A stretch of DNA of 64,000 nucleotides. Origin: an uncultured SAR86 cluster bacterium (GTDB taxonomy: Bacteria > Pseudomonadota > Gammaproteobacteria > Magnimaribacterales > TMED112). The notes under the pieces were generated by a model. The model made no database searches. It saw only the letters and a list, made by a program, of their open reading frames with translations, and was not told the origin of the DNA. Both the position numbers and the translations under genes were made by a program. Below, in pieces: positions 2,430 through 59,779 of this stretch (its first letter is position 1; each line of letters begins with the position of its first letter). Location: NCBI GenBank assembly GCA_902526535.1, contig CABZLG010000004.1, forward strand, positions 1,815 to 65,814, given 5' to 3'.

Positions 2430-2505
2430 TGGTGGAGCTGAGGAGAATCGAACTCCTGACCCCCTGCGTGCAAAGCAGGTGCTCTCCCAGCTGAGCTACA
2501 GCCCC
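2430..2505 (-). tRNA. tRNA-Ala (anticodon UGC)
   Basis: The reverse complement reads GGGGCTGTAGCTCAGCTGGGAGAGCACCTGCTTTGCACGCAGGGGGTCAGGAGTTCGATTCTCCTCAGCTCCACCA. It forms a cloverleaf with anticodon loop TTTGCAC, a G3:U70-type Ala acceptor stem, and an encoded CCA. Confidence 0.95.
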
Positions 2506-5940: not shown

Positions 5941-7554
5941 TTAGTCTCTCTCTAAATAAACAAACTTTGGATGATGATGATCAAGAATATTAGCATCCCA
6001 ACCTTTTACATCAGGATGAATTTGAAATTGCTTGACATAGGTATAGATTGGAATGATTGGCATCTCATTAATTAATATTCGCTCTGCCTCCATCAACTTT
6101 TTATATCTATCTTCTTGATCAGAAGTTCTATTAGCCTCTGCAACTAATTTTTCATATTCATAGTTTGTCCAACCTGTTTGATTATTCCCTCTTCCTGGTC
6201 TCATTATTTCAAGAAATGTATTTGGATCTTGATAGTCTCCTATCCATCCAGCTCTTGAAATTTGATAGTCTAAATTATCTTGTCTGCTTAAATAAACTTT
6301 CCAATCAGTATTGTAAATTTCAACATTTATACCTAAATTAACCTTCCACATTTGTTGGATTACTTCAGCTATCTTTCTATGGCCCTCCTGAGTGTTAAAT
6401 AGAATTTCAATTGTTGGAAATCCCTCTCCATTTGGATATCCTGCTTCTGTTAATAATTGTTTAGCCATCTCAGGATTAAATTCAACTACTGTATCAGGGT
6501 AGTATTCTGATGTTCCTGGAGGAGTAAAAGAGTATGCAGTTTTTTGCCCACATTTAGATACTTTTTCAACAATTAATTTCCTGTTAATACCCATTGCTAA
6601 TGCTTTTCTTACTCTCGAATCTGATAAATGAGGCAAAGTCGTATTCACTCTGTAATAATAAGTACCCATATAAGGATCAATTCTTAAGGAAGGGTTTTTA
6701 TTTTCGAGATAAACAGGACATTTCTCTTGTGGCACTACATTTGTGACGTGTAGAGCACCTGCCCTAAACATTCTATCTTCTGTAGATTCATTTTGAATTG
6801 GGTAGTAATGAATTTCATTTAGTTTAACTCTATTTGCATCCCAGTAAAATTCATTTTTCTCTACAACAATCTTTTTATTTAGCTCCCAACTTTTTAACTT
6901 CATTGGACCATTACAAACATGATTTCCAGGCCTTGTCCATTTCATACTCCTATCATCCATTTCACCAAATTTCAAAACCGTTTCTTTATGTACTGGCCAT
7001 GTCGAGTAATGAGCAAGTAGACCTACAAAAAATGGTGTTTGGTTTTCAAGTTCGACTTCGAGTTTGTAATCTGAAATTGCTTTCACACCAACTTCAGAAA
7101 AGTCACTAATTTCGCCATCATAAAATTCTTTTGCATTTTTCACATAAAAAAGCATTTCTGAATATTGTGATCCAAGTGTTGGAGTTAATGCTCTTTGCCA
7201 AGACCAAACAAAATCTTCAGGTGTGACGCGATCTCCATTTGACCATCTAGCATTTGGATTGAAATTAAAAACATATGTTTTTTGATCTTCTTTGAGAGTC
7301 CAACTTTCTGCAACCCCAGGCAGGTTATCTCTTCCACCTTTAGGATCAGTTATTGTAAGGCCCTCACAAACACCAATTAAAATATGATGTTCCGGTACAC
7401 CTGTAACAATATGTGGGTCAATACCTTGTGGTTCACTACCGTTTCCCCAATGTAAAATTTGACTTTCAAGTCCCTCTTCAACTGGAGTTTTTCCGCTTGA
7501 GCAACTTACTATTATGAATATGGATAATATAGAGATGAAATTTTTCATAAACAA
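5941..7554 (-). CDS. ABC transporter substrate-binding lipoprotein, family 5 (peptide/oligopeptide)
   Basis: 537 aa. The signal peptide has a lipobox (IIVSC). The length and sequence are typical of OppA/DppA/YejA-type binding proteins. It heads the permease genes. Confidence 0.8.
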   Translation of the reverse strand: MFMKNFISILSIFIIVSCSSGKTPVEEGLESQILHWGNGSEPQGIDPHIVTGVPEHHILIGVCEGLTITDPKGGRDNLPGVAESWTLKEDQKTYVFNFNPNARWSNGDRVTPEDFVWSWQRALTPTLGSQYSEMLFYVKNAKEFYDGEISDFSEVGVKAISDYKLEVELENQTPFFVGLLAHYSTWPVHKETVLKFGEMDDRSMKWTRPGNHVCNGPMKLKSWELNKKIVVEKNEFYWDANRVKLNEIHYYPIQNESTEDRMFRAGALHVTNVVPQEKCPVYLENKNPSLRIDPYMGTYYYRVNTTLPHLSDSRVRKALAMGINRKLIVEKVSKCGQKTAYSFTPPGTSEYYPDTVVEFNPEMAKQLLTEAGYPNGEGFPTIEILFNTQEGHRKIAEVIQQMWKVNLGINVEIYNTDWKVYLSRQDNLDYQISRAGWIGDYQDPNTFLEIMRPGRGNNQTGWTNYEYEKLVAEANRTSDQEDRYKKLMEAERILINEMPIIPIYTYVKQFQIHPDVKGWDANILDHHHPKFVYLERD

Positions 7555-7579
7555 AGGTTAAACCCTTATTATATTAGTA

Positions 7580-7984
7580 TCAATCTACGAAATGCTTTTC
7601 TTTTTCTTCGTTTATTGATTTTACTTCTGCACAAAATTCCGCTGTTGGCCTAGAAATAAGTCTCTCCAAGCCTATAGGATCACCAGTCTCTAAACAGTAG
7701 CCATAATCACCAGCTTTTATTCTAAGAAGGGCTTTATCGATTTTAGGCAGAAGTTTAGACTCACGTTCAACTATTCTGAGAAATAACATAGAATCTATTT
7801 CATGTTGTGCACGATCCACTTCATCGCTGCAAGCAGGCGGATTACTAAGTCTATCTTTAGCGTCTTTTATATGTTTTAAAGTCTCTTTTTTAAGTTCGTT
7901 AAGCTGACTTTTGAAAAAGGACAACTGTTCTTTATCCATATAATTTTTCTTAGCAGCTCTTAAAATTTTTTCTTTTGTAAGCAT
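7580..7984 (-). CDS. dksA: DksA-family RNA polymerase-binding transcription factor, two-Cys (zinc-independent type) variant
   Basis: 134 aa with a coiled-coil N-terminal half carrying acidic tip residues (DEVDRA). The C-terminal motif is YGYCLETGDPIGLERLISRPTAEFCAEV, i.e. CxxT-x17-CxxV instead of CxxC-x17-CxxC. Confidence 0.8.
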   Translation of the reverse strand: MLTKEKILRAAKKNYMDKEQLSFFKSQLNELKKETLKHIKDAKDRLSNPPACSDEVDRAQHEIDSMLFLRIVERESKLLPKIDKALLRIKAGDYGYCLETGDPIGLERLISRPTAEFCAEVKSINEEKEKHFVD

Positions 7985-8042
7985 AATGTGAACGGATATT
8001 TTATGTTTGAATTTAAAAATTTCAACTAATTCTTAAGATTAA

Positions 8043-9284
8043 TTACTTAGATTTCACAACACTGACACTTTTAGAAATACCGAAACCAAGATACATAAGA
8101 TAAATTCCAAGAGGGACAATGGCTAGTGGAGCTATATAGGCAACCATCCCTAAAGAAAACAACATATTAAAAAGCAGACCTCCTGAGGCATCACCAAATC
8201 TATTAGTGAATGTATCAATGAAAACTGTAGATTTATATTTTTCTTTTGAATTAAGTGTGGTGTAGACAGCTTCACGAGCTGGTTTATTTAACGCATACTC
8301 AAATGGTCGCATCACTCCTTGCAAGATTAGAAAAATAAGTACCCCAGAAGATGCCAATAAGTAATCAGATAAATATCCTGAAACAGCGAGGAAAGCCAAA
8401 GAAAATATCAAACCATAGATAGTAAGGACAAATTTTATCCCAAGAAAATTGGATCTAAGAATTAAAGCGGTAAGAAATACTTGAACGAATAAAGTGATTA
8501 AAGGAACAATTGAGTCTGCTCTTCCAAATATCCTAGTTTTTTCAGCTGAATCGTTTGTGTAGTTGTTGATAATTTCAAGTTGAAAAAACCAAAGTGCTGT
8601 TGATAGACACGTCCAAACGAACGCGTAAATAACAAACTGCCTGATCAAAGGATTCGTTCTTATTTGTGAAAACTGCTCAAGTGTGCTCGATAGAGTATTA
8701 TCTCCTGATGTGTTTAAAACAATCTCCTCTCTTTGAACACGAGATGAAAAGAAAATTGCAAGTAATAAGGACGAAACTGCTATTAGGAGGGAAAGATTCT
8801 CCTTATCGTAAAGAAACCCATCAACTAAAGCACCTCCGCACGAAGCACCTAAAGAGCCAAATCCACTAATAATTCCAAAGAATTTTTTTCCATCTTCAAT
8901 ATCAAAAGAGTTAACAGTCATTGCCCAAAAAATAGCTACTACAAAAAAATTAAATACGTTGTACCAAACATAGAAAAATGTTTTAACAGCAAGAATTTCT
9001 GGAAAATAGTTATAAGTTAAGAAGAAACCACACAAACATAAAATAAAGAAACCATAAATAGATGGCACAAGTTTTGTAAGACGAACTTTAGAAACTATCA
9101 ATGAATAAATTGGGTTTACTAGCAACATAACAATAACAATTATTAGCAAATAAAATGGCAGATCACTAGTTCCAATATTAGCTGCTATTGTGTTTCTAAA
9201 TGGTCTTAGCACGAATAATGAAAAAAGAACGAAAAAGAAAAATAAACCCGAGAAAATAGTGTTCTTAGAAAAAAATGAAGTCAT
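8043..9284 (-). CDS. MFS-type transporter resembling the ATP:ADP antiporter (TLC/Npt1-Npt2) family
   Basis: About 12 TM helices. The N-terminal pattern FVLRPFRNTIAANIG...LPFYLL resembles the TLC/Npt-like family, judged from memory rather than a search. The start is set at the ATG at 9284; the ORF-track start at 9317 is a TTG that overlaps phoA. Confidence 0.5.
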   Translation of the reverse strand: MTSFFSKNTIFSGLFFFFVLFSLFVLRPFRNTIAANIGTSDLPFYLLIIVIVMLLVNPIYSLIVSKVRLTKLVPSIYGFFILCLCGFFLTYNYFPEILAVKTFFYVWYNVFNFFVVAIFWAMTVNSFDIEDGKKFFGIISGFGSLGASCGGALVDGFLYDKENLSLLIAVSSLLLAIFFSSRVQREEIVLNTSGDNTLSSTLEQFSQIRTNPLIRQFVIYAFVWTCLSTALWFFQLEIINNYTNDSAEKTRIFGRADSIVPLITLFVQVFLTALILRSNFLGIKFVLTIYGLIFSLAFLAVSGYLSDYLLASSGVLIFLILQGVMRPFEYALNKPAREAVYTTLNSKEKYKSTVFIDTFTNRFGDASGGLLFNMLFSLGMVAYIAPLAIVPLGIYLMYLGFGISKSVSVVKSK

Positions 9285-9294
9285 TATGAAATGC

Positions 9295-10548
9295 CTATTT
9301 GCACTGATAGTCCTCAAGATTATCTAACCCTAATGCCTTTTTTATTGCAAAAAATACATCTGTATTATCCATTACACCAGAGAAGTTTTCTGCTCCCGGC
9401 CCTTGGGCAAATACCGGAATCATAATTCCAGTATGAGTACCCCTACCTATGGCTGTATTCCATGAAATTTTCATTTTTCCTGTCTCCCTATAGCGTGCAT
9501 CATCTTGTTCAATAAGAAGCCCTCCCGTTTCATGATCTGCTGTGACTATTACAAGAGTATCATTATTTTCTTTAGCAAAATTGAGAGCTTTCTCGACTGT
9601 TTTTTCAAATTCCTGCATTTCTTTTAAATAATATTCGTAATCATTATCATGTGATGCCCAATCTATCTTTGAACCCTCAGCCATTATAAAAAATCCTTTA
9701 CATCCGTCTTCAAGCATCCTTTTAGATTCTTTAATAGAAAAATCTAACATTTCTAATAAATTTGGTTCAAATTCTGTTCTTTCTAAATCATCTTCAGCAA
9801 ACAAACCAAATATTCTTTTTCTATCAATGTAATTAAAATTGTCTATGTCTTTTTTTGTTTCAAGATAATGGAAATTCTTTTTTATTTTTTTAACAAAATT
9901 TATCCCGTCCTCTCTTGTCCCTCCTTCCTCAATTGGAAGAAAATAGTCTGTCCCACCGCCAAGTACTATATGATTTTTTGAGTTGTAAATATGTTCGGCT
10001 ATCTCTTCTTTTTTATATCTTGAACTTACATGAGAGGCAAAGGCTGCTGGTGTTGCATGAGTAATTTCTGAAGTAGAAATTATTGTATTTACAAAGCCCT
10101 TTATAAATAGCATTTCAGTTATATTTTTAATGGGTTTTTTATTGTGATCCACACCTACATATCTATTTATAGTTTTGATACCCGTACTGAATGCTGTCGC
10201 AGAAGCGGCTGAGTCTGTAACCAAAGAATTATAAGCATGAGTTTTTACGAATCCTGAAAAATCAAATTTATCAAAAGATAGCTTATGGTTAGGTCCTCCA
10301 AGAATATTCCTATAAACTGAAATATGTGTTGGCCCCATTCCATCACCTATAAGTAAGATTATATTTCTAGCTTTAACGTCAACCTGTTTCAATTCTTTTG
10401 GATTTATATCTTTTTTAAAATCTATAGGAAGTATTTTTTTATCTTTTTCAGGCACCTCTATCAATAAGGGCGCATATTCATTAATTATCAAAAAAGTAAT
10501 TATTGATGAAATAATAGCTACCAAAAGATACTTAAAAAAATTATTCAT
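9295..10548 (-). CDS. phoA: alkaline phosphatase, PhoA family (Zn2/Mg enzyme), membrane-anchored or secreted
   Basis: 417 aa with an N-terminal hydrophobic anchor. Metal and active-site motifs are GDGMG, TDSAASATAF (nucleophilic Ser), VTADHETGG and GTHTG. Confidence 0.9.
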   Translation of the reverse strand: MNNFFKYLLVAIISSIITFLIINEYAPLLIEVPEKDKKILPIDFKKDINPKELKQVDVKARNIILLIGDGMGPTHISVYRNILGGPNHKLSFDKFDFSGFVKTHAYNSLVTDSAASATAFSTGIKTINRYVGVDHNKKPIKNITEMLFIKGFVNTIISTSEITHATPAAFASHVSSRYKKEEIAEHIYNSKNHIVLGGGTDYFLPIEEGGTREDGINFVKKIKKNFHYLETKKDIDNFNYIDRKRIFGLFAEDDLERTEFEPNLLEMLDFSIKESKRMLEDGCKGFFIMAEGSKIDWASHDNDYEYYLKEMQEFEKTVEKALNFAKENNDTLVIVTADHETGGLLIEQDDARYRETGKMKISWNTAIGRGTHTGIMIPVFAQGPGAENFSGVMDNTDVFFAIKKALGLDNLEDYQCK

Positions 10549-11368
10549 TTTTTAAATCTAAAGCATCAAGCTTTTGCTTTATTTGATCGTTTTCAGATTG
10601 TTCATAATCAAAATCAATCACAGAACCTTCCCAGTCGCCATACGTTGGATTTGCAATCATAAACCATACAAAACCCCAGAAGGAGTCTGTTTGCTCTACT
10701 ATAGAATTTCGAAATTTAGATGATTTCTTATTTTGTTGACCATCGATAAAATCTCCAAGATTATCTCCAATTATTTGTAGGATTCTGTAATTTTCTGCAA
10801 TAAGAGCTACTCGCGAGGATTTATTTCTATCCCATGATGGTTTCTCATATCTAGTTAAGATTTGATCTATATCATCTGATAAATCAAACCCTTCTTTAAC
10901 AAGATTATTTCTTGTGGCTGGTTCTAATTCATTGAGTCTATTTGTTACAAAAAAGATTTCAACGCCAAGTTCTTTTGCTGTTTTCATGTAGGATAAAGCT
11001 CCTGGTAAAAAAGTGGCTTTCTCTTCTTTTACCCACTCTATCCACCCATCTGGATAATTAGTATTATTTACTATTAAACGAGCTTGATATGCACTGTTAC
11101 TAAAGACCGTTTCATCAATATCCAGAATGATTGCAGGTGGCTTATCAAAAAAATTCTTCTCTCCGTTCATTTGATCAATTGAGGCTGAAATTTCCTTTTG
11201 TTTCAGAAGAAATGGAATTGTAGCTTCGGCAGTTTTAAAAGTTGTTCTAATGTGAGCTTTATACTCTGCAGATTCTTGTATATAAAGAGTTGCCATTAGA
11301 GATTCATGTTCCCTATCGTCAGCCAGAGAAATAAAACTTAATAGCAGAAGAGCTAATAAATTTTTCAT
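10541..11368 (-). CDS. secreted HAD-superfamily class B acid phosphatase / 5'-nucleotidase of the e(P4) family
   Basis: 275 aa with a signal peptide. DDDD-type motifs are ILDIDETVFSN, FFVTNR and IGDNLGDF. 8-nt overlap with the phoA start. Confidence 0.8.
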   Translation of the reverse strand: MKNLLALLLLSFISLADDREHESLMATLYIQESAEYKAHIRTTFKTAEATIPFLLKQKEISASIDQMNGEKNFFDKPPAIILDIDETVFSNSAYQARLIVNNTNYPDGWIEWVKEEKATFLPGALSYMKTAKELGVEIFFVTNRLNELEPATRNNLVKEGFDLSDDIDQILTRYEKPSWDRNKSSRVALIAENYRILQIIGDNLGDFIDGQQNKKSSKFRNSIVEQTDSFWGFVWFMIANPTYGDWEGSVIDFDYEQSENDQIKQKLDALDLKNE

Positions 11369-11410
11369 TGGTAAATAATATACTATTTTGTTGTTACAAA
11401 AATGTGAAAA

Positions 11411-13984
11411 TTAATTGTCGAATATTAGTTGAAAATTCACCCTTATCATTCTTCCTCTTGGATCATGTAAGCGTGAGTCCCAACTAAAATCTGGTGCATT
11501 GTATAGTCTTGGAGCCTTTTCATCGAAAAGATTTATTATTCCAATAGAAGTCTTTAAATCATAATCACCAGAATTATTATTAATTTGTAGATATTGTGAA
11601 ATTGGTAGTTCTAATGAAATGTCAAAAATTAAACTTGAATCAACTTTATTTTTATAGCCAAGTGATAAAGCTTTAGATGAAATTGTTCGGTTATTTATGT
11701 ATCCATCTAGATACCTTGCAATTAGCGAATACTTTGATTTATTTTTTTTGAAATTTATAAAAGTATTTATTCTATTTTTTGGCAATGAATGAGTATGTGC
11801 ATCAAAATTATGCTTGCCAACACGGTTAATCATAGTGATGCCATTTTCATTCTGCTCTGGTGTTAAAAATTCAATCAAGTTTGTTCCTTGTAGAATGAGT
11901 TCAATTTCGCCATTAAAAAAGTTCTTAACTGTACTTAATCCATAATCGATGCCACTTAGAACTGTTGATTCTTCGTTAAAATAAGTTGTTGTGACACCTA
12001 TTAAATCTCCTAATTCATTTCTTGTTATTGATGGGCCAAAAGGATCTTCGCTTAATAAAGCTTGGGCACTTTGTCCTTCAATCCTATTTTCAAAGTCTAT
12101 TTCCCAATAATCAAAACTAATTCTATTTCCATTATTACCATAAATTAAACCAAGATTAGTATTTGTTGATTCTGCTGGTTTAAGATCTGCATTACCTATT
12201 TGTGCCTGTCTTACAAAAACTGAACTTTCAATATCTCTTACACTGCCCAATTTAATATCACTTGAAAACATTTGTCCCATAGAAGGCATAGTAAAAGAAG
12301 TGCCAGATGAAATTCTGAAAGAAAAATTTTCAAAAAACTTATATTTAAAAGATAACTTTGGGTCGAAGGAAGAGAAATTTTCAGATTTTTCAAACCTCCC
12401 AGAAAAACGATAATCAAAATTTGGAAGGAATGAGCTATCTAATTCGAAATATAAAGAATACTTATTGCGACTCTCATTTACATTTTTTCCTCCTCCAAGG
12501 AAAAATAGATCTGCTGTTTTAATAATCTTGCCATCTGAGTCAAATTCAGCTCGTGAGATTTCATTAAAGTCTATATCTAAGTTTTCCACACTAGCTTGAG
12601 TTCCAAAAGCTAGATTTATATTTCCATATGAAGTTTGGGTAAGAATATCAAAAGTTGTGAGATCACCGATTTTGTCTGATATCTCTGCGCCTTTAATATG
12701 CTCTACAAGTTCGATTGAGTTTTGAGATGGATCAAAAATATTCCATTGTAAATCTCCTGATTCACCTCCATTTCCATAGAGTGCTGATAAAAATCTAGAA
12801 TCTACAATATCAGGTCTATTATGAAAGTTTTCGTGCTGACTATTAGTGACGGAAGTTTCTAAACTAAAATTTTCAAAATCTATAAGAAAACTGTAATTAA
12901 AATGATATTGAGAAATATCTTTTGGAGATTCTCTCCAAGGATACCTGCCCCCTAATGGCCTTCCATACCATCTTACAGGAACATTGAAGGGACTACCTCC
13001 TACTCCTGGCTCAATATCTCTAGCAAGAAATGGAAGTGCAGGATACGATGGGGATTGAGGATTATCGTTTACCTTTACATTCGAAAAAATTAATGAAAAA
13101 TCGTGATTTCTATTACTTAATCTTGTGTAGAACTTTTCGTGTGACTCATCATTTACAATATTAAAACCCCTTCCATAAGCAAAACGACAACGTCCATCTA
13201 ATATTCCTCCATTTTCGATGCAATTTGGATCAGGAATTGTTTGACCATTTGAATATTCACCAGCATACAATCCACTTTCAATTACGTCATCACCTAAAAT
13301 TTTAAAAGAGTTACCTAAACCACTCACGCTCAATTCTGAAATTTGATCAATTTCATAGGCTTTAAGTGGGGTTCTTTCCATTCTTTCAAAACTAAACACC
13401 AAATTAAAATTCTCAAAATCTTTTCCATAAAGAAAACCAAAACCAATGTCATTTTGGTTGTAATTTGTAGAGTATTGGCTATCTAAATCTAATTTATAGC
13501 CGCTAAATTTTTTTACAGTTATAAAATTTATAACTCCTGCAACAGCATCAGAACCATATATCGAAGTAGCTCCCTCTTTAAGAACTTCCATTTTTGTAAG
13601 AGCAATTTTTGGAATAATATTTGCATCTACATAGCCCTCTCCGTTGTATGAAGGAGTGCCAGTAAATGTTTGTCTCTTTGAATTTATAAGAAGCAATGTA
13701 GAAGCATGATCAAGACCTCTGAGAGTAATAGCGGACATTCCCTGATCTACTCCATCCATTGTATTTGTTTGAAAATGTGAACCAGAGGATGCAGATAAAT
13801 ATTTACTTATTTCAGCAATAGTTGAAACACCAATTTCATCGAATTTCTCTGCTGTAATTATTTCTACAGGGGAGAACTTTGATTTAGATTCTTTAAGAAG
13901 AGTGCCAGTAGTGATAACCTCCTCTATTTCCTCATTTGAGAAAATAGAAAAGGATATCAATATTAGCAGGAATAATTTGATCAT
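11411..13984 (-). CDS. TonB-dependent outer-membrane receptor
   Basis: 857 aa with a signal peptide and plug-domain motifs (EEVITTG..., VLKEGATSIYGSDAVAGVINFIT). The C-terminal part is long and rich in beta-strands. Confidence 0.85.
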   Translation of the reverse strand: MIKLFLLILISFSIFSNEEIEEVITTGTLLKESKSKFSPVEIITAEKFDEIGVSTIAEISKYLSASSGSHFQTNTMDGVDQGMSAITLRGLDHASTLLLINSKRQTFTGTPSYNGEGYVDANIIPKIALTKMEVLKEGATSIYGSDAVAGVINFITVKKFSGYKLDLDSQYSTNYNQNDIGFGFLYGKDFENFNLVFSFERMERTPLKAYEIDQISELSVSGLGNSFKILGDDVIESGLYAGEYSNGQTIPDPNCIENGGILDGRCRFAYGRGFNIVNDESHEKFYTRLSNRNHDFSLIFSNVKVNDNPQSPSYPALPFLARDIEPGVGGSPFNVPVRWYGRPLGGRYPWRESPKDISQYHFNYSFLIDFENFSLETSVTNSQHENFHNRPDIVDSRFLSALYGNGGESGDLQWNIFDPSQNSIELVEHIKGAEISDKIGDLTTFDILTQTSYGNINLAFGTQASVENLDIDFNEISRAEFDSDGKIIKTADLFFLGGGKNVNESRNKYSLYFELDSSFLPNFDYRFSGRFEKSENFSSFDPKLSFKYKFFENFSFRISSGTSFTMPSMGQMFSSDIKLGSVRDIESSVFVRQAQIGNADLKPAESTNTNLGLIYGNNGNRISFDYWEIDFENRIEGQSAQALLSEDPFGPSITRNELGDLIGVTTTYFNEESTVLSGIDYGLSTVKNFFNGEIELILQGTNLIEFLTPEQNENGITMINRVGKHNFDAHTHSLPKNRINTFINFKKNKSKYSLIARYLDGYINNRTISSKALSLGYKNKVDSSLIFDISLELPISQYLQINNNSGDYDLKTSIGIINLFDEKAPRLYNAPDFSWDSRLHDPRGRMIRVNFQLIFDN

Positions 13985-14027
13985 TAATTCCTAATATATG
14001 GACGAGTTTTAATAACCCATCAATATA

Positions 14028-16301
14028 TTAGAAATTTAATTTCAACCTAACTCCTACGTTCCTTCCTGGTAAAGGAACTTCGTTTTTAACAAAAGACGTA
14101 TGGTTTCTTGCTACCTCATCAAGAATGTTATTAGCAAAAACAGAAACTGATATTTCTGAACCAGCTGCGAAATCAAATGTTTTCATTGCTTTCAAATCTA
14201 ACATTCGAAACCCACTTGTAACTGTTTCGTCTTTACCTATGTCATCTTGTTTCCCGACATCTTTGAGAGTAACTTTCAATTCATAAGCATCATTATTTGC
14301 ATACTTTACAGAATAGATATTTCTAGCCGGCACTACTCTTGATACTTTTGTACCATCAGCGAATTTTCCATTCACTGCGTCTCTTCCAAAACTTAAATCT
14401 AAATAACCATTTGCAAGATCAATTTTTCTTCCAAATTGGAATTCATATCCGTTAAATTTTGCATCTTTCTGCATGTATTCTGCTCTTTGAAGTCCACCAT
14501 GATCATCGTGTTCGTCTTCATGTTCATCTTCATCATGACCGTCTTCATCATGATCATCTTCATCATGATGTTCTTCCACATCTTGAAGATATAAGAATTT
14601 ATTTATATCATTCCTAAAGACTGCCATCGATCCATAATAATCACCATTTCTATAATCAAAAGTAACATCAATATTATTTGAATTTTCAACATCTAGATCT
14701 GGATCACCAACTTCAAATCTTCCTCTCGCTAAGTGAGGTCCATTCATGAAAAGTTCCATGGCACCAGGCGCTCTAGCAACAGACGCAAAATTAATACTTG
14801 CTCCAAGATTATCAGTGAATTCTCTACCTAGACTGAATGAATAACTATATTCATTAAAATCAAGATCATAGTAGTCAATCTCTTCTTCATGCTCTTCTTC
14901 TTCACCATGATCATCTTCCTCATGATGTTCCTCCTCATGATGAATAATGCCGCCTTCTCTATTTATTTTGTCAAATCTAAATCCAAATTTAACGTCATAA
15001 ACATCGAAGTTTGTACCAGTGTAATAACCTAGCATAAACATTTCAGATGTCACTGGAGCCATATGTGCTTCTGATCCAACAACAGCCATATCGCTATTAA
15101 TTGAAGACATCATTAGCTTTCTTGAAACTACATCATTCCCAAAATCGAAAACTGTAGAAAACTCAGTTGCATCATTTAGAAAACTTGTAGGTCCTCCATG
15201 GCCACCATGTTCATCATGCTCTTCCTCATCCTCATGTTCATCATGGTCTTCTTCCATCTCCATATGTTGCTCGGTATGGATATAATCAGTATCTCTAAAA
15301 TTGAACATAATTTTTTTCAAGACTTCACCTTTAACCATGTAGGCACCCTGAATATCAAAAGCTTCTGAATTTGTTGATGAAAAAATTCGTTCTTCTCCAT
15401 GCTCATCATGATCGTCTTCATCACCGTGCTCATCTCCATGTTCATCACCGTGCGCTCCGGGTGGTTCAACGTGGTATGGAAGTCCAAAAAGGCTTTCTTG
15501 ATCTCTGAAACCAACACCAAAGTACCCCCAGTCACCTGTTTTAGAGATACCAATCCTTTGAGCAGTTTTTGCAGCATCAGAATTTGCTAGAAAACTTGTT
15601 TCTTCATCTTCATGATGATCTTCCTCATGGTCTTCATCATGGTCTTCATCTTCATGATGTTCTTCCTCCATATGAATTACAGCTCCATCAGGAATGTCGT
15701 AATTGCCAAAACTTGAATCCTTGAAAGCAAGACTTACATTAAATCCAGCAATATTATTCTTGTAAGAGAAACTCTGTGAATCTCCTTCACTTACGCTTTG
15801 TGTTTCAAGTCCAAGGTTAATTTCCTGTTCATTAAAATCCTTCTTAGCTATTAAATCATCAACAATATTAATAATTCCTCCAACAGTACCTTTTGCATAA
15901 AGCAAAGATGAGGGTCCTCTTACTATCTCAACTTGTTTAATATCATTAAAGTCAATTTCATTAGTATGGTCACCGCCCATTCCAGATACATCCTGAACTA
16001 CAAAACCATTGTTAAGAATCTTTACCCTTGTGCCTGTCATACCTCTTATTACAGGTCTACCGACAGCAGCTCCGTAATCTTGAGATGAGACTCCCAGAAG
16101 ATCATCTAAAGTTTCACCAAGACTTTGTGTAGCAGAACTGTCGATATCATCACCTTCAACAACGTGTAAAGGATCTTCTATATCTGCTAAAGCTGAAGAT
16201 GTAAGTGATGAAGTAACAACTACTTCTTCTACGTCTTCTTGTGCATGTAAGCTATTTACTATAAAAACACTCATTAAAAGTGTAAAAAAATAATTTTTCA
16301 T
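14028..16301 (-). CDS. TonB-dependent outer-membrane receptor with five His/Asp/Glu-rich insertions (ZnuD-like metal receptor candidate)
   Basis: 757 aa with a signal peptide (..SLHA) and plug motifs (EEVVVTSS, IEIVRGPSSLLYAKGTVGGIINIV). The terminal barrel strand ends in F (VRLKLNF). Five tracts of the type HEDEDHDEDHEEDHHEDEE are present. Confidence 0.85.
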   Translation of the reverse strand: MKNYFFTLLMSVFIVNSLHAQEDVEEVVVTSSLTSSALADIEDPLHVVEGDDIDSSATQSLGETLDDLLGVSSQDYGAAVGRPVIRGMTGTRVKILNNGFVVQDVSGMGGDHTNEIDFNDIKQVEIVRGPSSLLYAKGTVGGIINIVDDLIAKKDFNEQEINLGLETQSVSEGDSQSFSYKNNIAGFNVSLAFKDSSFGNYDIPDGAVIHMEEEHHEDEDHDEDHEEDHHEDEETSFLANSDAAKTAQRIGISKTGDWGYFGVGFRDQESLFGLPYHVEPPGAHGDEHGDEHGDEDDHDEHGEERIFSSTNSEAFDIQGAYMVKGEVLKKIMFNFRDTDYIHTEQHMEMEEDHDEHEDEEEHDEHGGHGGPTSFLNDATEFSTVFDFGNDVVSRKLMMSSINSDMAVVGSEAHMAPVTSEMFMLGYYTGTNFDVYDVKFGFRFDKINREGGIIHHEEEHHEEDDHGEEEEHEEEIDYYDLDFNEYSYSFSLGREFTDNLGASINFASVARAPGAMELFMNGPHLARGRFEVGDPDLDVENSNNIDVTFDYRNGDYYGSMAVFRNDINKFLYLQDVEEHHDEDDHDEDGHDEDEHEDEHDDHGGLQRAEYMQKDAKFNGYEFQFGRKIDLANGYLDLSFGRDAVNGKFADGTKVSRVVPARNIYSVKYANNDAYELKVTLKDVGKQDDIGKDETVTSGFRMLDLKAMKTFDFAAGSEISVSVFANNILDEVARNHTSFVKNEVPLPGRNVGVRLKLNF

Positions 16302-16343
16302 TTTACCTCCTTTAAAAAATTAAAATTTAAATAATTGGGATCT

Positions 16344-16613
16344 TTATTTTTGTGGTGGGGCTCTTGTAAGAAAGTTATTGAAATCGATAGCTAGAAGATA
16401 TTCTCCAAGATCAAGTTCAATAAAATAAAGTTTAGTGATTAATTTTTCTACTTCAACAGAAGCGGTAGCCTCAATTTCGGTATGACAAACATAACACTCA
16501 ACTTCTTCATGATGATCAATATAATCATCTGCATGGCTAAGTGAGTCAAATGTAATGGTTGCTACAAAAATCATTGCAGCTAATGATATGAATGAAAAAC
16601 TCTTCTTAGACAT
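16344..16613 (-). CDS. small exported protein with His-rich segment and CXXCH motif, unknown function
   Basis: 89 aa with an N-terminal signal/anchor, followed by HADDYIDHHEEVECYVCH. It lies 42 nt upstream of the His-rich TonB-dependent receptor on the same strand. Confidence 0.5.
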   Translation of the reverse strand: MSKKSFSFISLAAMIFVATITFDSLSHADDYIDHHEEVECYVCHTEIEATASVEVEKLITKLYFIELDLGEYLLAIDFNNFLTRAPPQK

Positions 16614-16662
16614 ATCGAAATAGTATCTTATTATTCAAAAATTAAAAGTGTTTGAGTAAAAA

Positions 16663-16739
<77 letters not shown>

Positions 16740-16798
16740 GAGGAAAGACATTATATGGTTTTTGATCGTATTTAGGTAGAGTAAAATAATTTAATCTC

Positions 16799-18622
16799 AT
16801 GAATCTTAAATTTGGTTTGATAGCACTATTAATTTCATCTTTTCTTGCTTCTATTGTGCAGTTCAATTTTGGTAAAACAGAAATTACGCTGGAGAAACTA
16901 GATACAGGCAAAGGCCAATATATTTATTACGATCTATATAAACCTAAGATAGCCTCTGAGAAGAATAAAGTCCCCTTCATAGCTATTATTCCTGGCTTCC
17001 AAAGATCGAAAGAAGCACTTTCTAACATCGCAATAGAGCTTTCTCGAAGAGGTTATGTTGTGGGTTTAATAGATCCATATGCGCAAGGACTTTCAAGTTC
17101 TTCAAGGAGTAGGATTGCAGCAACAACACAAGGCTATGGTATGTTCGCTTTAATAGAACATGTGAATGAAAGCTCTGACTTTAATTTCATCAATAAAGAA
17201 CTTTTAGGCTCAACTGGACACTCTATGGGAGGGAATGCAGCAATTAGAGGTGCAAATTATTTTGGAAAGAAAGCAGACGAACAAAATAAGAAGAGTCTTC
17301 TGCATTCTGTTTACGTTTCCGGCTATGTTTTAACACTTCGAGATGATGTCCTAAAAGATGTTAGATCAAATGTGGGGGTCAGTTACGCATTGTACGATGA
17401 GGGCTCATTTAGGAATGAGTTAAAAAATTGGGATGCGGCAAATATGAAAATCGCTCCAGAATCTTTACGGACAGTTAACAGCGGTTTAAAGAAGGAAGAG
17501 CATATTTCTGAAGTTGAATTAGGGAAATATTATGGTGACTTGGAGTCAAATACACTCAGAGTAATTTTTAATGAAGAATTACTTCATCCATTTCAACCCT
17601 ACAATGCGGAAGCAACTGCTAACCAATTAGCTTATTTTGAGAATGTATTTGGTGCCCCAATAAAACTCGATACATATGATCAAATCTGGCAATGGAAAGA
17701 GTTCTTTACTTTATTAAATATGATTATTTCCTTTTGGCTTTTAATTCCCTTAACAAGAACACTATTAAAAATTAATTTCTTTAAGACACTGGTTAAACCT
17801 ATACCTGAAGCTTTACCAGTTCAAAATAGAGTAGGAAAAACTATATTTTGGTCAGTCTTTTTTATTAGTGCTGCAATAGCATGTGTAACTTTTATTCCTC
17901 TTGTTGAAGTAGCAAAAATACTATTTCCAGAAGCTGCCACAAGACAACTTACTTGGTTTTTTCCACAAAGAATGAATAACTCAGTTATGCTCTGGGCGCT
18001 CTTGAACGGCTCAATTGGAATATTGCTTTTCTTTTTTTCATACTATTTTTTTGGAAAGAAACATGGAGTAAAAATTAATTCATGGGGCTTAGAGCTCTCT
18101 TTCAAGGACATATACAAAACCATCTTACTGGGTTTAATTATTTTTATTGTGTATTTCTCTTTACTCTTTTTAATTTACTTCTTGTTTCACATTGATTATA
18201 GATTTTGGTTTATGGGTGTAAGGATTTTTCAACCTGAAATGCTTTTAGTCTTAGCAATTTACTTCCCTTTCTTTTTTGTCTTTTTCTTTTCAAATTCTTT
18301 AAGAGTAAATGGTGGTATGAGATTTAAAAATCAGCCCGAATGGCTATCAAGGTTAATTGCAGGATTTGCTAATTCTGGCGGATTAATTTTAATAATAGTT
18401 ATTCAATATATTACTTATGGTTTTACAGGTGAAGTTTTTTGGACTACAAATTGGCTAAGTGTGAATTTATTATTTGGTATCGTTCCGATAATGTTTATTT
18501 TGCCTTATTTCAATAGGATCTTTTTTTACATGACTGGTAGATCTTTGCTTGGCCCTATAGTTACGTGTCTAATTTTTATAATGATCCTCTCAACAAATAC
18601 GGTGGTGTATTTACCAATTTAA
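16799..18622 (+). CDS. fusion protein: N-terminal alpha/beta-hydrolase domain plus C-terminal polytopic membrane domain, unknown function
   Basis: 607 aa with an N-terminal signal/anchor and a GHSMGG nucleophile elbow at about aa 140-150. The C-terminal ~300 aa contain about 8-9 hydrophobic helices with no motif I recognise. Confidence 0.6.
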   Translation: MNLKFGLIALLISSFLASIVQFNFGKTEITLEKLDTGKGQYIYYDLYKPKIASEKNKVPFIAIIPGFQRSKEALSNIAIELSRRGYVVGLIDPYAQGLSSSSRSRIAATTQGYGMFALIEHVNESSDFNFINKELLGSTGHSMGGNAAIRGANYFGKKADEQNKKSLLHSVYVSGYVLTLRDDVLKDVRSNVGVSYALYDEGSFRNELKNWDAANMKIAPESLRTVNSGLKKEEHISEVELGKYYGDLESNTLRVIFNEELLHPFQPYNAEATANQLAYFENVFGAPIKLDTYDQIWQWKEFFTLLNMIISFWLLIPLTRTLLKINFFKTLVKPIPEALPVQNRVGKTIFWSVFFISAAIACVTFIPLVEVAKILFPEAATRQLTWFFPQRMNNSVMLWALLNGSIGILLFFFSYYFFGKKHGVKINSWGLELSFKDIYKTILLGLIIFIVYFSLLFLIYFLFHIDYRFWFMGVRIFQPEMLLVLAIYFPFFFVFFFSNSLRVNGGMRFKNQPEWLSRLIAGFANSGGLILIIVIQYITYGFTGEVFWTTNWLSVNLLFGIVPIMFILPYFNRIFFYMTGRSLLGPIVTCLIFIMILSTNTVVYLPI

Positions 18623-58554: not shown

Positions 58555-58676
58555 AAAGTTCTAATACTTAAATTCCCTTGCTTATAAAGACAAAAAGTTT
58601 TAAATTTAAATTGCATTTAGACTTTGCACCATTCTCCTTATAACTTAAGGAGCCCTATAGGGTAAAAGGTTAAAAT

Positions 58677-58725
58677 CGTTCATCTTCGAAAGAGGACGGA
58701 AGTAAGCGAAAGCTGAAGGAACGCG
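58677..58725 (+). promoter_or_regulatory. glutamine riboswitch (glnA RNA motif) in the 5' leader of glutamine synthetase
   Basis: The sequence is CGUUCAUCUUCGAAAGAGGACGGAAGUAAGCGAAAGCUGAAGGAACGCG. P1 is CGUUC/GAACG. The conserved GGACGGAAGUA and GAAGGAACGCG blocks are present. P2 is AGC-GAAA-GCU with a GNRA loop. It ends 77 nt upstream of the GS start codon. Confidence 0.8.
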
Positions 58726-58801
58726 GCGTTAAACCCGATCGAGTTTAACTTCATTACTCCTGCAGATAAAAATGCAAAAAATTTTATTTTAAGGAGACTT
58801 T

Positions 58802-59779
58802 ATGAGCGATATTAAAACTTATGAATACATTTGGCTTGATGGTTTTAAACCCGAGCCTTCTATGAGGAGTAAAATTAAGGCAACAACCGAAGATTCTGCT
58901 CCTGAATGGTCCTTTGATGGATCTTCTACAGAACAAGCAGAAGGGAGCAGTTCAGACTGTTTGCTTCTTCCAGTTCAGACTTACGATAATCCAACTTTTT
59001 CTGACAAGCTAGTAATGTGCCAGGTACATGCTGCAGATCATACTGTTCATCCCTCAAATACAAGGGCAGCAGCTGAGGCAGTTGTAAAGGACGATTGGTG
59101 GTTTGGCTTTGAGCAAGAATATTTTTTTACGAATAAAGACGGGTCACCTCTTGGCTGGGAAGAAGGTGAACCCAGACCACAAGGTGATTATTATTGTGGA
59201 GTAGGTGCTGACAATGTTTCAGGCAGAGAAGTATCTGAGGCGCATCTTGAAGCATGTCTAGATGCTGGAATTAGCTTGACTGGAACAAACGCAGAAGTTG
59301 CTCTAGGTCAGTGGGAATACCAATGCTTTGGGAAAGGCATCAAAGCAGCAGATGATCTTTGGGTATCTAGATATCTTCTATTTAAAGTTGCTGAAGAATA
59401 TGGAGTAGGAGTGAATATTCATCCGAAGCCAAAAAAAGGTGATTGGAATGGTTCGGGTATGCATACGAACTTCTCAAATGAAGAAATGAGATCAAAGGGT
59501 TCGGAAGAGCTATTCTCTTCAATATGTGAAAAGTTAGGAAAAGTGCATCAGGATGGTATTGCAGCTTATGGTTCTGATAATGATCAAAGACTAACAGGAC
59601 TGCACGAAACTCAAAAGATTACAGAGTTTTCATATGGTGTTAGTGACAGAGGGGCTAGTATACGTATCCCTGTGTATACAGTTGAGCATGACTGGAATGG
59701 ATACTTGGAAGACAGAAGACCAGCTTCAAATGCCGATCCATATAAAATTCTTGCTCACATAGTAGGAACTTTAACTTAG
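58802..59779 (+). CDS. glnII: glutamine synthetase, type II (eukaryote-like, short form)
   Basis: 325 aa with a GSII-type N-terminus (YEYIWLDG...MRSK...WSFDGSSTEQAEGSSSD) and catalytic-domain motifs (FGFEQEYFF, HPKP..GDWNGSGMHTNFS, RGASIRIP). A strong AAGGAG SD lies 6 nt upstream. Confidence 0.9.
   Translation: MSDIKTYEYIWLDGFKPEPSMRSKIKATTEDSAPEWSFDGSSTEQAEGSSSDCLLLPVQTYDNPTFSDKLVMCQVHAADHTVHPSNTRAAAEAVVKDDWWFGFEQEYFFTNKDGSPLGWEEGEPRPQGDYYCGVGADNVSGREVSEAHLEACLDAGISLTGTNAEVALGQWEYQCFGKGIKAADDLWVSRYLLFKVAEEYGVGVNIHPKPKKGDWNGSGMHTNFSNEEMRSKGSEELFSSICEKLGKVHQDGIAAYGSDNDQRLTGLHETQKITEFSYGVSDRGASIRIPVYTVEHDWNGYLEDRRPASNADPYKILAHIVGTLT

Follow-up and report, generated by a model that had tools for sequence, protein, structure and literature searches.

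A SAR86 nutrient acquisition island joins a candidate leader-controlled metal importer to a putative receptor-phosphatase-carrier pathway

Do six tightly packed genes for a small exported peptide, two outer membrane receptors, two phosphatases, and a carrier form one uptake pathway, or more than one? The question is raised by a 64,000-nucleotide (nt) stretch of contig CABZLG010000004.1 (assembly GCA_902526535.1, positions 1,815 to 65,814), hereafter the window, from a SAR86 gammaproteobacterium. Its close relatives are all SAR86 metagenome-assembled genomes (MAGs) or single-amplified genomes, the closest being MED-G79 (94% identity), and its GC content is ∼32%. Few surface-ocean heterotrophs are as abundant as SAR86 bacteria, whose TonB-dependent receptors (TBDRs) have mostly unknown substrates. 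All six open reading frames (ORFs) lie on the minus strand. They encode, in order, an 89-amino-acid (aa) peptide (16344-16613), the His-rich receptor TBDR1 (14028-16301; 757 aa), a second receptor, TBDR2 (11411-13984; 857 aa), a class C acid phosphatase (10541-11368; 275 aa), a PhoA-type alkaline phosphatase (9295-10548; 417 aa), and a carrier of the major facilitator superfamily (MFS; 8043-9284; 413 aa). The spacings are, in the same order, 42, 43, 42, −8, and 10 nt, as a first-pass annotation made from the sequence alone had given them. The last value is measured from the PhoA stop to an ATG at 9284, inferred from alignment with relatives; the MFS frame would span 8043-9317 with a TTG start. 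That annotation had joined the six genes into a single pathway. We consider it moderately probable that the locus instead consists of two adjacent uptake modules within a flexible nutrient acquisition island: a metal importer controlled by a leader peptide (module A) and a pathway of receptor, phosphatase, and a carrier related to nucleotide transport proteins (NTTs) (module B).

To compare gene neighborhoods, we scanned GTDB species representatives with an alignment of the MFS carrier. The scan gave 49 loci (numbered with the prefix L), nearly all labeled SAR86 or unclassified marine Gammaproteobacteria and a few with other MAG labels, onto which the window proteins and the proteins of two alternative contexts were mapped. 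Contexts were counted in the 46 loci, the window included, that each have >1.5 kb of visible upstream flank. The MFS gene stands in the order acid phosphatase(-PhoA)-MFS-dksA in 29 of the 46 (28 of 45 plus the window), in an acyl-CoA synthetase-GST-Rieske oxygenase-MFS arrangement in 13, all of one genus, and in other surroundings in 4. Within the 29 loci, TBDR2 is found in 24, the His-rich receptor in 15, PhoA in 12, a thiamine-type receptor-PnuC-kinase unit in 12, a purple acid phosphatase in 11, and a MerC-like gene in 9. Acid phosphatase-MFS-dksA is thus a conserved core, while the receptors and phosphatases upstream of it come and go, and PhoA is a lineage-specific insertion exactly between acid phosphatase and MFS. 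The expectation that receptor, periplasmic phosphatase, and carrier would be conserved together was borne out over many SAR86 species; the six-gene pathway was not, since just 5 of the 29 loci carry the full set and module A is separable from the rest.

The small ORF and TBDR1 are a self-contained module, because a hairpin or terminator follows the receptor and because the pair recurs at an unrelated locus. In the window, the hairpin lies at the TBDR1 stop codon (13992-14030, minus strand; −13.9 kcal/mol) and is AT rich, with no U-tract. A hairpin follows the receptor stop in every locus examined; those of the relatives are GC rich, and a T-rich stretch comes after the hairpin in at least L005, L016, L018, and L041. 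In another SAR86-like genome (L054, L055), the upstream ORF (uORF) and its receptor stand alone beside an iron-type alcohol dehydrogenase (Fe-ADH) gene. The receptor there is 48% identical to TBDR1 and is also poly-His.

What, then, is the small ORF? It has a hydrophobic export signal at about residues 5 to 26, histidines in SH and DHH contexts, a variable linker, and two short motifs: C40-Y-V-C43 (codons at 16485-16496, minus strand), putatively metal ligands, and R84-A-P-P87 (16353-16364, minus strand), a putative ribosome arrest motif two residues before the stop. An ORF of 86 to 92 aa precedes all orthologues of the His-rich receptor by 35 to 50 nt, a spacing read in 13 loci and in L055, L056, and L058. 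These uORFs have in common a hydrophobic N terminus, then an invariant His, an acidic His-rich stretch, E-C-x-x-C (H-x-x-C in one lineage), a linker that is hardly kept, and S/T-R-A-P-P 1 to 3 residues before the stop, with RDPP in place of RAPP in L024 and L035. A profile search found 284 proteins of this family, 85 to 96 aa long, with no Pfam domain and no name. Among its 106 full-length cluster representatives, 105 have the hydrophobic N terminus, 103 have a Lys or Arg in the first 8 residues, 105 have at least two His upstream of CxxC/HxxC, and 102 have RAPP 1 to 5 residues from the C terminus; CxxC occurs in 70 and HxxC in 33. The distance from CxxC to RAPP takes just two values, 40 aa for 57 of the members and 41 aa for 12. 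Over the whole uORF alignment the mean column identity is 43%, and C43 is invariant. The motif is also rare by position: of 855 window frames of ≥30 aa, only the small ORF ends in R[AG]PP. Given the conserved C-terminal RAPP and the fixed CxxC-RAPP spacing, the small ORF is most likely a regulatory arrest peptide and not a structural exported His/heme protein. The first-pass description of an exported His/CXXCH protein was right as to the export signal and the CYVCH of the window, and less so as to its meaning. A c-type heme motif was considered and ruled out, as its His is not conserved (CxxCH occurs in 20/106 members).

Arrest at RAPP has been demonstrated experimentally for CruR and for ApdA/ApdP (PMC9426467, PMC12992588, PMC10951233), and a 2025 survey that showed CruR arrest in vitro places RAPP/RGPP uORFs upstream of TonB receptors across Gram-negative bacteria (PMC12992588). 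In Bordetella pertussis, copper bound at the CxxC of CruR (Bp2923, DUF2946) is proposed to relieve the RAPP arrest and so to switch BfrG off (PMC9426467). The SAR86 arrangement resembles CruR-BfrG in its small first ORF, export signal, CxxC, near-terminal RAPP, constrained spacing, and TonB-dependent transporter directly downstream. It differs in the extra His cluster of the peptide; in its spacer of 35 to 50 nt, compared with the generally long intergenic distances of cruR homologues and the Rho-dependent termination between cruR and bfrG; and in lacking a PepSY partner, with a receptor that is ZnuD-like and not OprC/BfrG-like and a metal that is probably not Cu. The second group of relatives is CutF-CutO of Rhodobacter capsulatus (PMC9973294) and SecM-SecA. 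These too have a leader exported during translation with a Pro-rich stall at its C terminus, the downstream ribosome-binding site, sequestered in an mRNA stem-loop, is freed by the stall, and the leader carries a metal motif. In CutF, however, Cu prolongs the stall and turns on a detoxifying oxidase, whereas the SAR86 importer should turn on without metal; a masking hairpin, moreover, is predicted in 9 of 13 SAR86 relatives and is weak in the window. We file the family as CruR/CutF-like by architecture, a new and so far unannotated branch of that kind, because neither the small ORF nor any of 9 members matches DUF2946 (Pfam, E ≤ 10) and the CxxC-RAPP spacing is 40 to 41 aa, not the 45 of CruR.

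The spacer between the two genes offers a candidate read-out. TBDR1 has an unusually strong Shine-Dalgarno (SD) sequence for this genome, GGAGG (16306-16310, minus strand), the only GGAGG within 20 nt of a start among 29 window genes checked. The Pro-Pro codons of RAPP read CCUCC in 9 of 13 related loci, where they are predicted to pair with this SD. RNA folding, in which a ribosome on RAPP was modeled as a 28-nt footprint, predicts that the SD of these nine loci is no more than 3% unpaired when the mRNA is free and 14 to 72% unpaired with the ribosome in place. Separately, a bias to CCU at the first Pro of RAPP (11/16, p ∼0.03, with relatedness ignored) was too weak to count.

A motif ∼40 residues from the peptidyl-transferase center sits at about the tunnel exit. 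A ribosome stalled at the C-terminal RAPP of the leader would therefore hold the export signal and the His/CxxC ligands outside, with RAPP 40 residues downstream of them. In most relatives the stalled ribosome would keep the CCUCC:GGAGG hairpin open, and the receptor would be made until the ribosome moves on. When the cognate metal binds the nascent His/CxxC, the stall would be relieved and the receptor turned off, as for CruR with copper; an importer is needed when its metal is scarce, so metal binding should release the stall. We infer stalling, the identity of the metal, and SD unmasking from sequence features.

Which metal might TBDR1 carry? Proteins were classified by scans with hidden Markov models (HMMs) against Pfam and NCBIfam, and these upheld the first-pass gene identities: two TonB-dependent receptors, an e(P4)-type acid phosphatase, PhoA, and an MFS protein. 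TBDR1 consists of a Plug domain and a TonB-dependent barrel; its best PDB match is ZnuD (4RDR, E 3e-34), which is also its best NCBIfam model. It has five His/Asp/Glu runs. Poly-His runs are kept in all 15 orthologues, with 3 to 5 long His/Asp/Glu runs in each full-length one. Neisseria meningitidis ZnuD is likewise a TonB-dependent receptor with His/Asp-rich surface segments, the surface location of the TBDR1 runs being putative; identity is low, the TBDR1 runs are far longer than the aligned ZnuD segments, and control is apparently by leader peptide and not by a Zur box. The divalent-metal importer suspected at first pass thus stands as a putative one, with Zn the most likely metal and Co, Ni, and Cu also possible; its poly-His/acidic loops would capture the metal.

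Module B begins with TBDR2, again a Plug domain and a TonB-dependent barrel. Its matches to characterized families are partial and reach at most 59 bits, compared with receptor family cut-offs of at least 223; its PDB matches cover the plug domain only; and a homologue search gave, at 55 to 60% identity, only marine proteins with no name or a generic one. TBDR1 is nearest to ZnuD, and TBDR2 groups with no characterized receptor. In 24 of 29 loci TBDR2 is the next gene upstream of the acid phosphatase, or is set apart from it only by a MerC-like gene, and we regard it as a putative outer membrane importer of a phosphoester substrate.

The acid phosphatase matches PF03767 (E 5e-37; 128 bits, passing the cut-off of 27) and TIGR01533, lipo_e_P4 (E 3e-51; 174.3 bits, under the cut-off of 216); its PDB matches are 2I33 of Bacillus anthracis (E 7e-33) and e(P4) of Haemophilus influenzae (3OCY, E 7e-22). 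Class C is defined by DxDET and GDxxxDF (PMC6438641), and the enzyme has DIDET at residue 83 and GDNLGDF, the four Asp of that class. All SAR86 class C orthologues checked outside the window lineage (window, L001, L002) have DVDQT or DIDQT, not DxDET, and DVDQT is the form of most SAR86 orthologues. Residues aligned to e(P4) F86, W91, and Y221, which we take to be the nucleobase clamp, are Y, W, and Y, and the orthologues checked keep YP.GW and NP.YG.WE. Neither the window protein nor 27 orthologues have a lipobox; because there is a signal peptide without Cys, the enzyme is expected to be soluble and periplasmic, unlike e(P4). By its motifs and profile matches it is a class C (e(P4)-type) HAD phosphatase and a predicted nucleotidase. 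Hence "e(P4)/class B," as it was first labeled, was right in family and wrong in class, a confusion invited by the Pfam name Acid_phosphat_B / HAD IIIB. A survey of soil and sea noted one coastal metagenome in which a class C phosphatase of SAR86 is dominant (PMC6438641).

The PhoA gene and the acid phosphatase gene share 8 nt. PhoA scores above the cut-off for PF00245 (E 1e-78; 265.7 bits), and its best PDB match is the TAB5 alkaline phosphatase (2IUC, E 7e-56). The protein is compact and TAB5-like, has an N-terminal hydrophobic anchor, and has complete catalytic and metal motifs (DGMG, DSAASAT, THATPA, EGSKIDWASH, DHETGG, and GTHTG). PhoA-type enzymes require Zn. MAGs that bear PhoA include, among other sources, some from the Mediterranean or Black Sea by name (L001, L002, L015, L016).

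The carrier has 12 helices, and the window protein alone is only a weak MFS_1 match. At E ≤ 10 it does not match PF03219 (TLC), which is hit by 1 of 13 SAR86 relatives (E 0.24). A profile search of 1.8 billion representative sequences, however, gathered 4,707 proteins into its family at E ≤ 0.001. Among 61 sampled relatives, ∼28% identical to the window protein, 45 match PF03219 (best 1e-17) and 44 match TIGR00769. The family profile finds the structures of Chlamydia pneumoniae NTT1 (E 3.8e-24) and Arabidopsis AtNTT1 (4.9e-21), and the next MFS protein follows at 1e-4. An AlphaFold (AF2) model (pLDDT 92.7) gave the same picture with Foldseek: the top three hits are NTTs, with TM scores of 0.75 to 0.82, compared with 0.67 to 0.71 for LacY. 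The NTT/TLC family (TC 2.A.12; 9J3L, 9J3N) thus shares profile and fold homology with the SAR86 carrier, and the FW.F and EEK.K.K..ID blocks are common to both. The differences are that the SAR86 protein has 413 aa and not ∼500, that the window protein misses PF03219, that the third Lys of the K-x-K-x-K block is Thr in SAR86, and that SAR86 is free-living, with the MFS gene linked to periplasmic phosphatases. Profile and model point to a true but distant NTT/TLC homologue, in which transport of nucleotides is putative. The grouping with nucleotide carriers that had been suggested by eye ("TLC/Npt-like") was therefore recovered by family profile, predicted structure, and Foldseek, although the window protein by itself does not show it. 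NTT homologues occur widely among free-living bacteria, with no known role there (PMC5381601, Major et al. 2017).

How might these parts work together? TBDR2 would import phosphorylated organics too large or too dilute for porins, most likely nucleotides or nucleotide-type cofactors because the module has a class C nucleotidase and an NTT-like carrier. The soluble nucleotidase, joined in some lineages by a membrane-tethered, Zn-dependent PhoA, would strip phosphate in the periplasm; the carrier would move the product, or a partly trimmed nucleotide-type substrate, inward; and inorganic phosphate (Pi) would enter by transporters encoded elsewhere. The tight spacing of acid phosphatase, PhoA, and MFS, the PhoA insertion, and the recurrent recruitment of receptors and phosphatases suggest a shared theme of TonB-dependent capture and periplasmic dephosphorylation. 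Both the substrates and the co-transcription of module B are inferred from gene content and spacing.

Two known arrangements are comparable. In the e(P4)/NadN/PnuC system of H. influenzae (3OCY, 3ET4), a periplasmic class C enzyme likewise works with a dedicated inner membrane carrier, the DDDD motif is conserved, and the aromatics align with F86, W91, and Y221. The SAR86 enzyme differs in being predicted soluble and not an outer membrane lipoprotein, entry would be through a TonB-dependent receptor and not a porin, the carrier is NTT-like and not PnuC, and there is no NadN. SusCD-like "Pus" loci of Bacteroidota and Pho-regulated TonB receptors of Caulobacter and Xanthomonas serve the use of organophosphates under phosphate starvation. 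They share with module B a TonB-dependent importer co-localized with periplasmic phosphatases; module B belongs to another phylum than the Pus loci and has no SusD partner, no Pho box, and a linked NTT-like carrier. Each part of the SAR86 locus is a variant of something known, while the combination and the free-living context of the NTT homologue are new; the proposed module B pathway is specific to SAR86. In the SAR86 literature we found no description of the six-gene locus and no paper linking SAR86 with an ATP:ADP antiporter. SAR86 genome papers (PMC3358033, PMC11582366) make no mention of phosphatase; SAR86 is described as having few ABC importers and many TonB receptors (PMC3358033).

Several observations weigh against the two-module reading. 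For the switch, the Pro codons of the window itself are CCA CCA, its SD is predicted to be poorly masked (0.29 to 0.38 unpaired), a level that 51 of 100 shuffles also reached; the window lineage may use another read-out, or a weaker pairing with ACUUUCUU just upstream. The absence of DUF2946 likeness and the shorter CxxC-RAPP spacing set the peptide apart from CruR. For the metal, the ZnuD model (NF038289) is matched at 205 bits, well below its cut-off of 950; TBDR1 has a heme receptor-like ARAP...H...DPDL stretch; the characterized CruR/CutF systems sense Cu; and no inner membrane metal transporter is encoded in the window cluster. For module B, phosphatases would destroy the nucleotide substrate of an NTT-type carrier, so that the flow of substrate is not self-evident; in 17 of the 45 other SAR86 species the MFS gene has neighbors unrelated to this pathway; and distant MFS relatives (P0124, P0125, P0127, P0129) lie on short contigs or in a Tol-Pal neighborhood, uninformative settings with no phosphatase neighbors. 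Finally, a promoter and terminator scan of 7400-17000 gave counts at or below those of shuffled sequences.

Four other readings compete with all or part of this one, besides the identity of the metal. The integrated six-gene system first envisaged, in which TBDR1 supplies Zn for PhoA, TBDR2 supplies the substrate, and the small ORF encodes an accessory protein that is exported and binds metal or heme, draws on the common strand, the short gaps, the Zn requirement of PhoA, and the presence of the small ORF and TBDR1 in 9 of 9 PhoA loci with visible flanks, compared with 6 of 16 without PhoA. Counted as independent lineages, however, that co-occurrence shrinks to about 4, 3, and 2; in those 6 loci the receptor module is present and PhoA is not, and at another genomic site the module stands alone; a hairpin or terminator separates TBDR1 from TBDR2; and the rarity of CXXCH among the small-ORF relatives (20/106), with the conserved RAPP and spacing, favors a regulatory peptide. 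We think this system improbable, and the link between the receptor and the Zn of PhoA, a separate claim of the first-pass annotation, weak. Still less probable is that the adjacency reflects inherited gene order in a streamlined genome, with six functionally independent genes. Short intergenic spacers are found genome-wide, MFS occurs in four other contexts, and the unrelated housekeeping gene dksA is equally tightly linked (29/29); yet the region upstream of the acid phosphatase rearranges and keeps gaining purple acid phosphatase, PhoA, TBDR1, TBDR2, and the thiamine receptor, and the 8-nt overlap and 10-nt gap within acid phosphatase-PhoA-MFS also speak against chance adjacency. A better case, although we still find it rather unlikely, can be made for import by TBDR1 of heme, or of a Cu, Ni, or Co chelate, rather than Zn. 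TonB-hemin is its second-best family (99 bits, full length), and the ARAP...H...DPDL stretch is presumably an FRAP/NPNL-like motif. The CruR/CutF sensors that have been characterized respond to Cu, and CutF-like clusters with His alone adjoin Ni/Co genes (PMC9973294). The score of the ZnuD model is nevertheless double that of the heme model, the OprC-type model for copper receptors aligns with the plug only (32 bits), and poly-His/Asp/Glu loops together with a His-plus-Cys sensor are more in keeping with Zn, Co, or Ni than with Cu(I) or heme.

Module B has two serious rivals of its own. Plain phosphate scavenging in the manner of a Pho regulon, with the MFS protein a Pi/anion carrier or an unrelated conserved neighbor, is doubtful but deserves weight: two phosphatases of broad specificity are present, a purple acid phosphatase joins them in the same island in 11 loci, PhoA occurs in MAGs named for the Mediterranean and Black Sea among other sources, most SAR86 have Pit only and Pst in a subset (PMC11582366), and the many conserved Arg and Lys of the MFS family suggest an anionic substrate. 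No Pho box was found, though; the acid phosphatase-MFS core is kept irrespective of PhoA, the carrier is NTT-like and not PHS/GlpT-like, and the class C enzyme has aromatics at the e(P4) F86, W91, and Y221 positions. Less probable is salvage of phosphorylated vitamins, be it of NAD and nicotinamide mononucleotide (NMN) as by e(P4)/PnuC or of thiamine pyrophosphate (TPP), pyridoxal phosphate, or flavin mononucleotide, with MFS importing the dephosphorylated vitamin. SAR86 lacks pathways for B1, B6, B7, B5, and B12 and has mostly unidentified transporters for them (PMC3358033), e(P4) is an NMN/NADP phosphatase (PDB names), and a receptor, PnuC-like, and kinase-like unit lies in the island in 12 loci, with a TPP riboswitch in L004. 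But that thiamine unit has its own receptor and PnuC-type carrier and would not need MFS, Rfam found no riboswitch ahead of either TBDR2 or the acid phosphatase, whether in the window or in seven loci, and the characterized NTT substrates are all nucleotides. An extension of the two-module reading, which we put forward as a speculation and judge unlikely, holds both that the peptides are a new sensor branch (no DUF2946 likeness; Zn, Co, or Ni and not Cu; RAPP stalling and SD unmasking gating a poly-His importer) and that the NTT-like carrier imports intact or partly trimmed (di)nucleotides captured by TBDR2, for example, NAD from NADP trimmed by the class C enzyme.

If the two-module reading is true, roles would be assigned to two SAR86 TonB-dependent receptors, and trace metal uptake in a streamlined genome would be controlled by a self-contained leader peptide, with no recognizable regulator box or gene at the locus. 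NTT-type carriers of free-living bacteria would gain a testable function, the question left by Major et al. (2017), and nucleotide uptake by the SAR86 protein would be the first physiological role of an NTT homologue in such a bacterium. With PhoA and the metal module varying between species, the island would mark adaptation to P and trace metal supply.

The immediate surroundings bear on regulation. No convincing Pho, Zur, or Fur box was seen in the four spacers or within 50 nt ahead of the small ORF, and the window has no regulator gene, in agreement with the first-pass reading; Rfam found no RNA family in the six-gene region except the flanking tRNA-Ile. An AT-rich near-palindrome, AAATAGTATATTATTT, lies upstream of the acid phosphatase (11373-11389, minus strand), with an inverted copy like it upstream of the small ORF (16617-16633, plus strand). 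As a regulatory motif it was rejected, since its 3 matches in the window were reached by 25 of 100 shuffles. AAAATAGTWTAWWATTA is kept exactly upstream of the acid phosphatase in five distant loci only.

On the other side, 3′ of MFS, lies dksA of the DksA2 type (7580-7984, minus strand; TIGR02420, E 5e-32), which follows MFS in 29 of 29 loci at 81 to 96% identity. Its best PDB match is Pseudomonas aeruginosa DksA2 (4IJJ, 1e-26, compared with 1e-17 for Escherichia coli DksA), and in its CxxT...CxxV motif two of the four zinc finger Cys are replaced. With a promoter-like site at 8025-7998, between MFS and dksA, it is probably a separate transcription unit. A Zn-independent DksA2-type gene next door fits a Zn-sparing lifestyle; if it is the sole DksA, the stringent response factor of SAR86 would be Zn independent.

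The window island, ∼14 kb, is bracketed by tRNA-Ile(GAU) (16663-16739, minus strand; ARAGORN and Rfam), 50 nt upstream of the small ORF start and the upstream edge of the variable region, and by tRNA-Ala(UGC) (2430-2505, minus strand). These two tRNAs are usually paired in rRNA spacers; in the window they stand alone. The same tRNA as the window's tRNA-Ile bounds the island in L004, L024, and L041, and the L005 island also begins with a tRNA; the anticodons of the relatives' flanking tRNAs were not read. Island content differs strongly between species and includes receptors, three types of phosphatase, a thiamine module, and, in the window, opp genes. In L004 (1929-5403), a TPP riboswitch (55 bits, just over the gathering score) lies directly upstream of the thiamine-type unit, which consists of a 700-aa TonB receptor, a PnuC-like carrier, and an APH/choline kinase-like (ThiK-like) gene and is a candidate for thiamine salvage; in several species the purple acid phosphatase is just upstream of this unit. 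A 127-aa membrane protein of the MerC family stands between receptor and acid phosphatase in L003, L004 (8726-9109), L006, L011, L017, and L019 to L022. It is not in the window and could be the inner membrane metal carrier of the island. In L027 (6576-12095) and 12 related loci, the NTT-like MFS gene ends an apparent acyl-CoA synthetase-GST-Rieske oxygenase-MFS unit, convergent with genes for a TauD family dioxygenase and a DUF885 protein and with no phosphatase link.

Two further features of the window lie outside the island. Divergent from it, a gene at 16799-18622 (plus strand) encodes a 607-aa protein, 97% conserved in L001, with an N-terminal α/β-hydrolase domain like those of PETase and dienelactone hydrolase and a long C-terminal region that by eye is rich in hydrophobic segments. 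At 58675-58727 (plus strand), a glutamine riboswitch (glnA RNA, 66 bits) precedes a short, 325-aa glutamine synthetase-like ORF (58802-59779).

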